Source: Escherichia coli
Lineage (GTDB): Bacteria > Pseudomonadota > Gammaproteobacteria > Enterobacterales > Enterobacteriaceae
DNA: 64,000 bases
Direction: 5' to 3' (one strand)
Assembly (NCBI RefSeq): GCF_013122565.1
Contig: NZ_CP053258.1
Every line of letters begins with the position of its first letter. The stretch's first letter is position 1. A program made the position numbers. This document shows positions 55,901-61,900 of the stretch, piece after piece.

Positions 55901-58900
55901 ATTTAGCTTCGTTTTTACGCAGAAGTACGCATCACACCAATAGTATTAAATTCATTTTTCACACTGAGCAAACGGGGGTCATGAATTAAAACATTTGACC
56001 ATAAATCATTCTCTTTAATTAATTGTTGCCAGCGCTTTTCATATTCTTTTTTACCATACACAGTGTAAATTAACGGCAAAATCACACCATTGATTTTGTT
56101 GGTGTTAATATTTGCCAGTAACTTCATGATGTCATTTTTTATAGATGCGCCATAGATCAGAAGTTTCGTATAAAGCGAGTTGACACAGGTGTAATCAAGA
56201 CCATGTTCAGGTTCAAGTTTAAGCAATAAACTTTTGGCTTTGTCATTATGTCCTTTCAGTGCCATGAACATAGCCAGAATAGATGTAATAATTGGATTGT
56301 TACAGGTGTTTTGACTGTTAAGATTTAATGCAAAAGATATCGCGTTATCGAGGGGGGATGTGTAATAAAGTATAATTAATTTAAGAATGCTTATGCCCAT
56401 TTTATTGGGTTCAAGAGCAATGCTTTTTTCTATTAAATTAAATGCTCTTGCAAGGTCGCCGTTCAAAAAACATAGCAGCGACTGATAATAATAAACGTCT
56501 GGCGAATTAGGTTTGAGTAAATGTGCTTGTTTAAATAGCACATTAGACACTGAATGTTCATCTTTTAGCCCACTGATTAAACCCAGTAAACCCAATGCCT
56601 GAGAATTTGAAGGGTTAATTTCCAGAGCCTTTTCAATGGAGGTTACTGCCGTAGTTATTGCTTGTTTTTGTTCACTGATTCCAAGGAGTGCTAATGATAT
56701 ATGGCATTCCGCCAGGCAACAGTAGGGCAAGGTATTTTGCGGTTGCGTACTCACACAATCTCTAAATATTACTAATGCTCGTTTCAAACTTTCTGGTGTA
56801 TAACGGTACATTTCCATCCTGCCATTCATATACATAACAGCAGAATCCAGAGATGGCATTTGTTGTGTATTAATAGATTTAAAATTAATGTTGGGTATTT
56901 TTTCAATAAGAATATTAATTACTTGTGATAATAATACGGAAAGAGGATTATCGGGGTTGAAATCAATACTTTGATGATCAATCAATTTATGCGTTCTGGC
57001 ATGGATTAATTCAATAAATAAACGCCAGTTTTTACCATAGTGAACGACCTGACCCATAATATAATATTCTGGGCCTGTTTTATTGATAAACTGATGGATG
57101 GTGGAGAAATCACTGGCCTCATTCGTTACCGAAGCGGGTAAAATATCTAAACCACAAAAAGCATATTTTGAAAGGCCCTGGACCAGTTCGTAATGGAGTT
57201 TTAGAACATTGATCGAACCTTCAGTACGAAAGGGAAAAACGGCAAGAGTGGTGGTCGACTTTATCGGTTCATTATCGGTTACAATCACAATGGGGACAGT
57301 AAAACGGTATCCACGACCATAGACCGTTTCGATATACTTACACTGTTTATTCTCATGCAAAAGTTTACGCAATGCATAAATACACCGTGTTAAAGATTCA
57401 TCACTAGCAACACTCGCGCTCCAGACCTTATCGATAATCTCTTCTTTGCTAACAATTTCACCGTCAGCATTAAGTAATAGAATGATAACGCCAAGTTCTT
57501 TGGGTGGAATATGATATTCTTTGTTTTTGAATAATAATATTCCATTGTTTTTTAATACAAAGTCGCCAAATATATATTGTTGTGTATTATTTTTTCCATG
57601 TTGCAGTTGCATAGAACGCTCCTTCCATTTTCTCTATTCATAGTATTAATTTGATCTGTCTAAAATAAAGTATTGGCAGAATTGCTCTATCAAAAAACGC
57701 TCATTTTGTAAGATTGTGATGAAAAAATGAATGAAAGGTGATGCTTAATAATATGAAACGCTGGTCCCATTTTACGGGACCAGATAGTGGACGATAATTG
57801 TAGGTGTTACTTAATCAGAAACGTAAATAATCTTTCGCTGAATCAAACAACGCAGTAATGGTTGAAGATAATAATTTGATAATCGTATCGTAGGTAGAGT
57901 TGGCTGTACTGTATTTAGTCGTTATAACCTGCACGTCGGTTTTCATGTTTTCTGCCTGGCTGTTATAACCCGCCAGCCATGCCTGGTATTCAGCCGTGCT
58001 TATTTCGTAGCCGGTGAATTCTTTAGATATATTTTTTTCCTTCCCTTTATCGTCCCTGTGTACCATTGAGTCTGAAGACTGACTCATACTGTCAATAATC
58101 TGAGGGTTGGGAATAATAACATACAGACCGCTACCTTGCGGTTCAACTTCGACAATCGGAGAAGGTGTGCGGTGTTTGGGATCGGGTGGAATTACCGGAA
58201 GTCCTAAAGCGGCACACCATTTTTCTGCTTCTTCCAGTGGAACACCAATTTTATCAGCAGGTGCCGGAGGGTATAAAACATAGTCTGGATTATAATGATA
58301 ATGGAAATCACCATTAGGATATTTATCGATATAATAAAAATGCATCAAGGCTTTTTGGAATGCATTGACATCAAAAACTATCGCATCGCCTTTTTTATTA
58401 GAGTGAGTCCATTTTCCCATATTACTTTGGATATGTTCACTGAAGTCCTGCCAGTATGCACTCATTATCTCAACGCTATTTGCATAGATTTCTAGGTAGT
58501 CGCTACCGAGCACACTCATCAAATCAGCAATATCACTGCATATATATTTATCACTTTTAAATTCGCTTGAACTACTGGCCGTTAAAGTACTGCTGGTTGC
58601 TGAACTTCTCATTTCAGGCGCAAAACTATCTAAAGAAGCGATAGCGTGGGTTAAGATTCCTTTGGTCGTTGCCATTGCACTTGGCCCGGTTGTGTTGTCA
58701 GCAACGTTAGCCAGGGTTTTTCTCACAGAGTTATGCAGGGTCAATATTTTAGCGGGATCCTTTAACTTTCCGTCAATAGTATTAACATTTTCTGTAAGCT
58801 GCAGAACGTTTTTTATCAGCAAATAACTTTCGTGTAAGAGCGCAGATCCTTTCTCTGACAGGTTCTCAGTTGGGAAATTTCTGAGCATGTTTTTAACGAA

Positions 58901-61900
58901 GTTAAGTTGTATGTCGTGCTGGCATTTCCAGTCTTCATTTCGTGGGCTACGTTCACTGACTAAAGTTGATAGTTTCTCAACATCTTTCTTGAGCATAGCG
59001 CCAATATTATTATCCTTACTGGCGCTGTTATTTAAATTACCCTCGCTTTTGCTGTTTTCCAGTTGATGAGGCTCCTCACTTTGCGAGGATGCCTCTTTGA
59101 GAGGAATGTTTGCATTCTGCTGACGTAGAATATCTATATTTAAATTATTATCTTTATTAATCATGAGTCATTCCTCCTTAAATATAATTAACTATTATTG
59201 CAATAATTTATGAGCGAATGCCTTGAACGATAGCGCTATCAGTATCAATAATGGTTTGTATTATTTGCTGTAATAAATTGAGTGCCTGATCTCTTCCTTG
59301 AACATCACGATTGATTTGATCCAGATAGCTACTCATAACTGAATGCATGACATTTTTAGCTTGCTCAGCCAAGTCTTTTTCTGCACGAGTATGTTCTGCT
59401 GCCACTGTTCCGCCGTATTGAGATAGATTTGCAATAGACTGAAATAGATTATTGGTATGAGAAATAGAACTGGTAATACCATATTTTAGATTGTGACTAT
59501 TAATTTTTTCTTTGTCTTTAATTTTATTAGTGATACTTTCTTTTTCTTTTTGTAACTTACTTGATTGCTCTTGTTTGTCATTATCCTCAATATCCTGGTT
59601 CTTTGATAATTCTTTTTGTTGCTCTTCTATTTTGGCAAGTCTGGTTTTCGCATTTGCCATATCTTCTTTTGATCTTATCCGAGTTTGGTCATCTGGTTTG
59701 TCTGTATTTTGTTCCTGGTTTTCTGCGATATCATCTATCTTTCCCGCGGGCTTCGCAAGTTCTGCACCTGCCATAAATACAGCTCCCGTAGCATTAATAG
59801 CTGAGCCTACTAATGCACCTGTTAAATTTGCCCAAGAAGCATTTTTTGTTTCGTCACTCTGAAGCTTGACAAGCTGTTCAAAAACGATGCTCATGCTAGC
59901 ATCAGCCTTGGCAGAGGCATTGTACATTGATGTAAAGACTCTTAGAAAGGCCTCCATAATGTTCTGTTGCCTCATCGTCAAATTATCTAACATATCGAGA
60001 ATATTAAATGTTATGGTTTTCTCTATTGACTCGGTAGACTGACAGGATGATTTTGTTGCTACAGCAGAATTTTGATTTATATTATGTAGTGTATTCTTAG
60101 CATAATTAAGACCATCTAGTACCTTACATTGTAATTCAGGTGAGAGAGCACGGACAGACTCTATCAGACTAATAAATTTAGTATTTGTGTCAACTTTAAT
60201 ATCATTTGACGAAAAACTTTGCAGTATTTTTTTAGCTTGTGATACTCTTGTTTCATAACCAGGTTGTTCATCGAATGTTGTTTTGTCGAGATTCTTATTA
60301 TGAGCTGTATTGTTTATATTGCTAATATTATTGGTCATTTTTGAATCCTCTTATACGATAGAATGAGAAGCAAATTTCAAAGCTTCAGTTCGGTGTTGTA
60401 ATACACGCACCATCTGAGCTACCTCTTGTTCGACGGTTTTATCTATCCTTTGCATCACTGTAAGCATTTGTTCGCGCGTTTTTGATAGATTGCTTATATC
60501 TTGTTGTAGAATTTCGATATCTGCAGACTTACTGGCAGCGTATTGATTCATGCACGATGTAATTATTGTACAAACGCCTGCGGCAACTTTTTCAAGAAGA
60601 ATAGTTATTTTTGCAAATATCATTATAAATTGTGATGATGCTTTTATTTTGTCACCGAGGAAATTTAATGCTGACATGATTTTTTTTGAAACTGACTTGA
60701 TCATAGATTCCACGGTGGATTTTATACTGTCAGTTATTTCTTTTGTGATTTCTTCGGCGGCAGTTTTTGAGAGTGCCTTTACAAGTTCACTTATTGCTAC
60801 TGAACAAATTAATGTTGCACCAATCATTAATGTTACCATAACAATAGAAGCGGCTGCAGATGAGTAAATATCTTGTACTAAATCAATAGTCGTTTGTTGG
60901 ACACCCAAGGCGTCCAGAAGAGCGCAGATTGCGAGTAGTGTGGGGTCATATTTTGAAATAATACCCGAAAGACCTTCAGTAAGTTTTCCTAAAATCCAAC
61001 CGGTAGCCGTGGTGCCCAGAGTGATTTGACAAATAATATCAACACCTAATACTACTGCCCCCGCGATTCCTCCAATTAGTGCCAGCGCTCCAGCAAAGCT
61101 TGCCCCAGCACTTGGAACTGCTGCGACAATACCAATCACAATTAAGGCTGCACTTACGGCAAAGGTAACTACAGTAACGACCTCATTAATAATGTTTAAA
61201 ACTTTTGTCCATGTAGTATAGCTGCGTGCTGTTTTATTGAGTTTATTTTCCCTGACATGGTTAATTTCTTTCATTACCTCAGATTGATTTTTAATGGATT
61301 CGCAATTGGTATCACCAATAACTTCCATTACTGAGGTAATCAAAAGGATAAATGTGGCTGTCGCGTTTCTATTTTTCTGGTTTTCCTGGGTCAGGAAGAT
61401 ATTAGTGGTAAAGTTATTAATCTGTTCTTGCTGTTGAATTTCGTCAAAAATTTCCATACTTTGGCCGATCGCAGCATCAGCATCCATAATGGCTGTATTT
61501 AACGATTTCTCAGCTAACGATTTTTTTTGTAATGACAGCGTGAGTGTTTTCTCAGCCGCATTTTTTTGCGTCAGTACTTTATTATATTGCGGATCGCCAG
61601 GTTGCAGTTGCGACAGCTCTTGATTCAATGTATTGACTTTTTTCTCCAGCGATTGCACCTTTTTATCGACCGCATTGTAATTATTGTTGGCCTGATGCAT
61701 GATATCGTCAGCTTTTTGCGCAGAATCTAATGAGGATGCATAGGCGTCGCTTAATTCACGAAACTTATTATGTGCCATTTCGTGTCGAAGCAGGGTGCTG
61801 TCAAGGTTATTATGCAATCGTGTTGTAATATCCTGATCGGCAATGCCTGTTAAATTACCCAAAATCATTGTCAGGCGGGCATCATTCGTCTTTGCTGTAG

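Follow-up and report, generated by a model that had tools for sequence, protein, structure and literature searches.

IpaD/SipD-family needle-tip proteins (SctA) of type III secretion systems (T3SS) have been solved for Salmonella (SipD), Shigella (IpaD), Burkholderia (BipD) and the Cpi-1 system of Chromobacterium violaceum. By HMMER, these were the closest solved relatives of EipD, the tip protein studied here. Its gene, eipD, belongs to the eip island of Escherichia coli and was analysed within a 64,000-nucleotide (nt) stretch of contig NZ_CP053258.1 (RefSeq assembly GCF_013122565.1), called the window below. IpaD has 332 amino acids (aa) and BipD 310.

The known members follow a common plan, with a disordered leader, a helical domain 1 and a core. 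Crystals of BipD, SipD and IpaD leave the first 29-38 residues undefined (PMC3150277). Domain 1 has been called a self-chaperone in IpaD and BipD (Johnson et al. 2007, as cited in PMC3150277). It blocks needle-protein binding until it is displaced, and deletion of domain 1 from SipD permits binding of PrgI (PMC3150277). Among the three proteins, domain 1 has almost no sequence conservation, and its helical structure is kept (PMC3150277). The eip locus of E. coli is described in passages of PMC7058095, PMC11068852 and PMC4210603. The length of EipD is not mentioned in the passages on the eip locus and on ETT2 (type III secretion system 2 of E. coli) examined in these three papers, a set which does not cover the original description (Sheikh et al. 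2006).

Identity of the gene and comparison with known tip proteins

The open reading frame (ORF) is, with high probability, eipD, encoding the needle-tip protein of ETT2. It would be read from its annotated ATG, and its product would follow the three-part plan of the family with enlarged parts. The ORF lies on the minus strand and encodes exactly 449 aa.

57815..59164, minus strand: eipD coding sequence (CDS), eip-island T3SS needle-tip protein (SctA), IpaD/SipD family; 449 codons plus stop, from the ORF call and PF06511

The original prediction had given the same extent and length, without the strand, and had named the product a SipD-like tip protein about 100 aa longer than SipD. Length and identity were borne out, and the exact difference from SipD (343 aa; PDB chain 7rye_F; PMC3150277) is 106 aa. 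The Pfam profile T3SS_TC (PF06511) matched EipD with E=5.5e-34 and 118.6 bits, over its curated cut-off of 25. The match spans aa 182-447 of EipD and profile positions 124-355. All nine residues that are near-invariant in the family (Y223, W396, Q412, Y418, A421, N422, K430, L432 and S433) are present in EipD. Near-invariant here means conserved at a level of at least 90% over 137 sequences, and the set includes the C-terminal helix motif Y..AN...K.LS.

On the minus strand, the gene order in the window is eicA, eipB, an eipC-like gene, eipD and then eilA, with eaeX/air beyond on the plus strand. This agrees with the RefSeq annotation of strain 042 (eicA-eipB-eipC-eipD-eilA-air) and with the eip locus as published (PMC7058095; PMC11068852). 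Thus, eipD stands directly after a class II chaperone gene and two translocator genes. Along its full 1350 nt, the eipD gene of strain 042 is 97.3% identical at the nt level; its start and 449-aa length agree, as do its flanks: eicA (chaperone), eipB (sctE), eipC, eilA, air/eaeX and yicS. By this near-identity and synteny, the ORF is EipD as encoded by the eip (selC-B) island of E. coli. The exact protein of the window is already in NCBI (WP_171460124.1 / QJU26322.1).

SipD of Salmonella pathogenicity island 1 (SPI-1; PDB 3NZZ, 2YM9 and 7RYE) belongs to the same family and has the same core fold (HMMER E=2.5e-24). Truncated SipD superposed on the EipD core with a Foldseek template modelling (TM) score of 0.82 and a root-mean-square deviation (rmsd) of 3.1 Å. 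EipD is predicted to share with SipD the plan of leader, helical domain 1 and core, and both genes share the operon logic of chaperone, SctE, SctB and tip protein. They differ in their N-terminal parts. The leader of SipD has 31 residues, compared with about 49 in EipD, and its domain 1 has about three helices, compared with five predicted in EipD. The domain 1 region of SipD comprises about 100 residues and has no sequence similarity to domain 1 of EipD, which comprises about 130 residues plus a linker.

IpaD (E=3e-17, TM 0.82-0.83) and BipD (E=7e-12) are likewise of the same Pfam family and core fold, and for BipD the sequence match to EipD was confined to the C-terminal helix. Both are shorter than EipD, with solved chains of 318 aa (IpaD) and 303 aa (BipD), and have a much smaller domain 1. 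The Cpi-1 tip protein (PDB 2P7N, a 407-residue chain) is also well over 343 aa. It aligned to EipD 165-448 (E=3.4e-22), and long N-terminal parts are thus present elsewhere in the family. It is about 45-50 residues shorter than EipD and has an N-terminal part of unrelated sequence.

Translation start and coding constraint

Two candidate start sites were compared in detail.

59173..59179, minus strand: Shine-Dalgarno (SD) sequence AAGGAGG, separated by 8 nt from the ATG at 59164-59162; the same in 10 alleles
58994..58996, minus strand: codon of Met57, a proposed internal start that was rejected; AGGA 16 nt upstream (-3.6 kcal/mol), within predicted helix 51-70

The duplex of the eipD SD sequence with the 16S anti-SD had an energy of -12.1 kcal/mol at a spacer of 8 nt. 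An in-frame TGA at 59170-59168 lies two codons before the ATG, and therefore the ORF cannot begin further upstream. SD, ATG and reading frame were identical in the ten eipD alleles, which had zero stops or frameshifts. Inspection of ribosome-binding sites at internal ATGs, a check put forward in the original prediction, found none that was usable. The same was true of all other in-frame ATG, GTG and TTG codons within codons 1-215. TTG141, the strongest of these other internal starts at -5.4 kcal/mol, was rejected; it would halve domain 1. On these signals, translation of eipD from the annotated ATG at 59164 is strongly supported. The 449-aa gene model is sound and re-annotation is not needed.

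Coding constraint was tested on the changes segregating among the ten alleles. The per-site ratio is (non/N)/(syn/S), and P values are against neutrality.

Codons 1-56: 6 synonymous and 8 non-synonymous changes, per-site ratio 0.30, P=0.029
Codons 1-203: 31 synonymous and 41 non-synonymous changes, per-site ratio 0.35, P=1.7e-5
Codons 204-449: 52 synonymous and 5 non-synonymous changes, per-site ratio 0.02, P=5.8e-31

The core is under very strong purifying selection, and constraint on the N-terminal 203 residues is weaker (Fisher P=5e-9 for the contrast). Because non-synonymous changes are in deficit both in codons 1-56 and in codons 1-203, the N-terminal part is, by these counts, translated and constrained, far less so than the core.

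Predicted architecture

An AlphaFold2 (AF2) model of EipD was computed from the 137-sequence alignment (mean predicted local distance difference test score, pLDDT, 79.7). It predicted the following parts.

59018..59164, minus strand: disordered Asn/Ser/Gln/Glu-rich leader, aa 1-49; pLDDT <50, and a per-site ratio of 0.30 in codons 1-56
58625..59014, minus strand: enlarged all-helical domain 1, aa 51-180; AF2 secondary structure, pLDDT 64-81
58553..58624, minus strand: Ser/Thr-rich flexible linker, aa 181-204, site of a 105-nt indel; pLDDT <50 for aa 183-197
57818..58552, minus strand: conserved core, aa 205-449; pLDDT mostly >90, per-site ratio 0.02, nine near-invariant residues

Asn makes up 21% and Ser 12% of residues 1-56. 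At 49 residues, the predicted leader is modestly longer than the 29-38 undefined residues of the BipD, SipD and IpaD crystals. Five helices were predicted in domain 1 (51-70, 79-95, 104-127, 137-157 and 164-180). In the linker region, 44% of residues 186-203 are Ser. The core was modelled as a mixed alpha/beta distal domain set between two helices, 205-244 and 390-448, which form a long antiparallel central coiled coil. In Foldseek, SipD and IpaD truncated at the N-terminus superposed on the modelled core at TM 0.82-0.83, with an rmsd of 3.1-3.6 Å.

Location of the extra length

HMMER aligned EipD 187-448 to SipD 110-342. The 106 extra residues of EipD divide into about 77 N-terminal residues and about 29 inside the alignment. 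The latter fall in three loops of the distal domain, whose positions are approximate and which are common to the Escherichia orthologues P0003 and P0004.

58295-58318, minus strand: distal-domain insertion near aa 283-290; SipD-side gaps in the HMMER alignment, approximate
58154..58195, minus strand: largest distal-domain insertion relative to SipD, about aa 324-337 (VIPPDPKHRTPSPI); SipD-side gaps in the HMMER alignment
58010-58051, minus strand: distal-domain insertion near aa 372-385; SipD-side gaps in the HMMER alignment, approximate

The low-complexity leader accounts for about 18 of the 77 N-terminal extra residues (49 aa, compared with 31 undefined in SipD crystals). In the model, most of the N-terminal excess is a larger helical domain 1 and not low-complexity sequence. 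The extra region had originally been described as N-terminal, low-complexity and Asn/Ser-rich. That description fits the first ~50 residues; it does not fit the bulk of the helical domain 1 or the ~29 internal residues.

Length was also compared over a family set of 127 representatives with at most 50% mutual identity, obtained by searching 1.8 billion proteins exhaustively.

Segment before the core helix: EipD 203 aa, family median 154 aa; as long or longer in 8/127
Core helix 1 plus distal domain: EipD 185 aa, family median 149 aa; as long or longer in 2/127
C-terminal helix: EipD 61 aa, family median 61 aa; no length difference

Of the EipD excess, about a quarter to a third is internal and not N-terminal. 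Total lengths in the family ranged from 285 to 544 aa, and 5/127 representatives were as long as EipD. N-terminal lengths varied continuously, from 72 to 321 residues. By these alignments, family length varies continuously and EipD falls in the upper tail, its extra length being within normal family variation. Tandem duplication as the source of the length was rejected, the core being present once in both the alignment and the model. The longest family members, P0026 (521 aa) and P0111 (544 aa), both from beyond the window, apparently carry the core of coiled coil and distal domain twice, in tandem.

Escherichia orthologues

Diverged syntenic orthologues of EipD were found in E. coli (432 aa, 47% identity) and in Escherichia albertii (482 aa, 53% identity). 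Both orthologue islands carry the chaperone, B, C and D genes in the order seen in the window, a HilA-like regulator and an invasin, and the E. albertii island adjoins yicL and yicS, like the island in the window. The N-terminal parts have 199 aa in the 432-aa E. coli protein and 235 aa in E. albertii (range 199-238 aa including a 484-aa form). The middle parts have 172 and 186 aa, respectively (range 172-186 aa including the 484-aa form). Each of the 432-, 482- and 484-aa forms has an SD sequence at its annotated start, and none has one at internal ATGs. For the E. albertii orthologue, AF2 predicted disorder at aa 1-46, a helical part at aa 47-211, a linker and a confident core.

At the sequence level, BLASTP of the EipD N-terminal part against those of E. 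albertii and the divergent E. coli protein gave E about 1, and the parts were not alignable. A phmmer search with the N-terminal 203 residues against 1.8 billion representatives returned, for that region, only fragments more than 90% identical. Because the orthologues have equally long N-terminal and middle parts, each with an SD sequence at the annotated start, the long form is, on sequence and model, a property of the Escherichia Eip sub-family. Length and predicted architecture are kept, and sequence conservation of the N-terminal part is not demonstrable across the sub-family. Conservation of the whole N-terminus within the sub-family, raised in the original prediction, thus held for length, for predicted architecture and among E. 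coli alleles, and failed for sequence between diverged orthologues. Unalignable N-termini fit the low conservation published for domain 1 (PMC3150277).

Occurrence and alleles in E. coli

The eipD CDS was present at 95-99% identity in 730 of 5,426 complete E. coli genomes, 97.9% being the best among the matches listed. The same 1350-nt extent is annotated in all nine genomes inspected (strain 042 and 8 others). Of the 13 aa changes between EipD of strain 042 and of the window, 12 lie within the N-terminal 203 residues; the differences are allelic only. Amino-acid polymorphism among the ten alleles was concentrated around residues 154-200. Three substitutions of the window allele (P161, I170 and F181) were absent from the other nine.

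The sole length variant found was the 484-aa allele, present in 2 of the 5,426 genomes. It differs by one in-frame 105-nt (35-codon) indel in the linker, placed after CDS nt 541 and flanked by the 7-nt direct repeat GCCTGAA (L012:616-720). An in-frame indel is what a coding region would be expected to show. Since the E. albertii orthologue has residues where the 449-aa form is gapped, that form probably arose by deletion.

Neighbouring genes

The genes and signals around eipD are as follows.

62380-62877, minus strand: eicA, SycD/LcrH-class chaperone; TPR_3 and LcrH_SycD over cut-off (LcrH_SycD 112 bits against 104.8)
60351-62132, minus strand: eipB/SctE, SipB-like translocator; T3SSipB over cut-off, SseC under cut-off (19.7 bits against 30.2)
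59208-60338, minus strand: eipC-like gene, 376 aa, in the SipC/IpaC position; from ORF and position
59208..62877, minus strand: upstream genes of the same operon as eipD; from ORFs, family matches and the strain 042 RefSeq annotation
57761..57783, minus strand: terminator-like hairpin with a 10-bp stem and 6 GC pairs, 32 nt past the eipD stop; from a consensus scan only
55915..57612, minus strand: eilA, HilA-family regulator downstream of eipD; Trans_reg_C and TPR matches, named eilA in strain 042
45022-55863, plus strand: EaeX/Air inverse-autotransporter adhesin, 3613 aa; from ORF and family matches

The eipC-like ORF ('hypothetical protein' in RefSeq) had no Pfam or NCBIfam match, though it stands between SctE-like and tip-protein genes. 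It is separated from eipD by a gap of 43 nt, in which there was no small ORF for a separate LcrG/PcrG-type chaperone. The hairpin suggests that eipD is likely the last gene of the eicA-eipBCD transcription unit.

A 60-aa ORF between eicA and eipB (62188-62370, minus strand) is intact in the window and is a frameshifted hypothetical gene in strain 042. The eip islands of E. albertii and of the divergent E. coli lack a counterpart, and by this distribution the ORF is probably not a conserved gene. The mechanically called ORF over yicS (63179-63541, minus strand) has 120 aa. In both strain 042 and E. albertii, RefSeq YicS is shorter, at 294 nt (97 aa), and therefore the first start codon of this ORF is probably not the real one. 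EaeX/Air contains a long series of near-identical immunoglobulin-like repeats of ~100 aa, and spurious antisense ORFs lie over the repeats. According to a passage of PMC7058095, the number of these repeats differs among strains. The backbone genes uhpT and uhpC in the window are 98.6% identical to E. coli. A tRNA scan for selC found no tRNA within the window, and the island insertion point therefore lies beyond it.

Alternative explanations

The original prediction had left two options, an internal start at the Met in NNIGAMLKKD (Met57) or an N-terminal extension. If ATG 58996-58994 were the true start, the product would have 393 aa, and the 56 Asn/Ser-rich codons before it would be an untranslated leader. 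The first 49 residues are indeed of low complexity, predicted to be disordered and devoid of detectable homologues beyond close alleles, and Met57 is conserved among those alleles. However, the AGGA before Met57 is too far away, whereas codon 1 has a perfect AAGGAGG at optimal spacing. Codons 1-56 are open and in frame in all ten alleles and show the deficit of non-synonymous changes. Met57 also lies inside a predicted helix, so that a product starting there would lack the unstructured N-terminus common to SipD, IpaD and BipD and required of a substrate secreted by a T3SS. Even so shortened, it would exceed SipD by 50 aa, and the Eip orthologues have no equivalent internal Met bearing an SD sequence. 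The start at Met57 is thus very improbable. The SD sequence, the constraint, the orthologues and the position of Met57 in helix 51-70 favour an N-terminal extension. That extension appears genuine, and it does not account for the whole excess; in the SipD alignment, about 77 of the ~106 residues are N-terminal and about 29 are insertions within the distal domain.

Decay of the gene was considered as well, in which a long, fast-evolving N-terminus would reflect relaxed constraint in a remnant that no longer works. According to passages of PMC7058095 and PMC11068852, mutational attrition has affected ETT2 in the majority of E. coli. The non-synonymous/synonymous ratio of the N-terminal 203 codons is roughly 15-fold above that of the core, and the 35-codon in-frame indel segregates. 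Yet the 52 synonymous and 5 non-synonymous changes of the core mean strong purifying selection, and even the N-terminal part is significantly under neutrality. Neither stops nor frameshifts occurred in the ten alleles, the genomes inspected carry the same full-length CDS, and divergence of domain 1 is known for the functional SipD, IpaD and BipD. We regard decay as highly unlikely. A new function of the enlarged domain 1 and the distal insertions, beyond that of a larger self-chaperone and without counterpart in SipD or IpaD, such as response to another host or environmental signal or antigenic diversification, is less improbable but still unlikely. The N-terminal and middle segments are in the upper tail of the family, the enlargement is retained in three diverged Escherichia lineages, and domain 1 evolves fast. 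Against this, the extra parts matched neither a domain nor a fold, the family forms a continuum of N-terminal lengths, and its members commonly have a domain 1 that evolves fast and unconstrained. It is also unlikely that the Eip tip proteins are a distinct structural sub-class, with an enlarged, fast-evolving domain 1 of four to five helices and three conserved loops, that adapts the ETT2 tip to a signal or host surface other than the bile salts that IpaD and SipD are described as sensing, or reflects host-driven diversification.

Several points weigh against the identification of the ORF as a full-length ETT2 tip protein. EipD scored 134.6 bits with the NCBIfam equivalog TIGR02553 (SipD_IpaD_SspD), under its cut-off of 219.25, and 98 bits with the SipD-specific NF011858, for which the cut-off is 619. 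EipD would therefore be a divergent member of the IpaD/SipD family and not a strict SipD equivalog by TIGR02553, and its equivalence to SipD in function is assumed. The selection test on codons 1-56 is weak, with 14 segregating changes. The start site and secretion are read from sequence and prediction. The model of domain 1 is only moderate in confidence, and full-length superposition on SipD or IpaD gave an rmsd of about 16 Å; how domain 1 packs against the coiled coil is therefore uncertain. Finally, the ETT2 apparatus genes lie beyond the window. The Prokaryotic Genome Annotation Pipeline labels EipD as 'IpaD/SipD/SspD family', despite its TIGR02553 score.

Proposed role of EipD

As the needle-tip protein, EipD (SctA) would be one of four products that the eip island supplies to ETT2, an SPI-1-like T3SS; the others would be the chaperone EicA and two translocators, EipB and EipC. 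By analogy with the undefined N-termini of BipD, SipD and IpaD, the disordered Asn/Ser-rich leader of ~50 residues may carry the type III secretion signal. As in the family, domain 1 could act as an intramolecular self-chaperone over the central coiled coil until secretion and docking, when the needle protein would displace it. The core would then assemble at the ETT2 needle tip and act with EipB and EipC, its distal domain carrying the ~29 additional residues in three loops.

The gene, its annotation and the locus were already known, and the significance of this analysis lies mostly in correct annotation. For the most part, differences in length within the family come from domain 1, which is poorly conserved, and from loops of the distal domain. 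The very strong purifying selection on the EipD core in E. coli (ratio 0.02) argues for continued use of the eip translocator module wherever it has been kept, and the variable part of EipD is its N-terminal domain.

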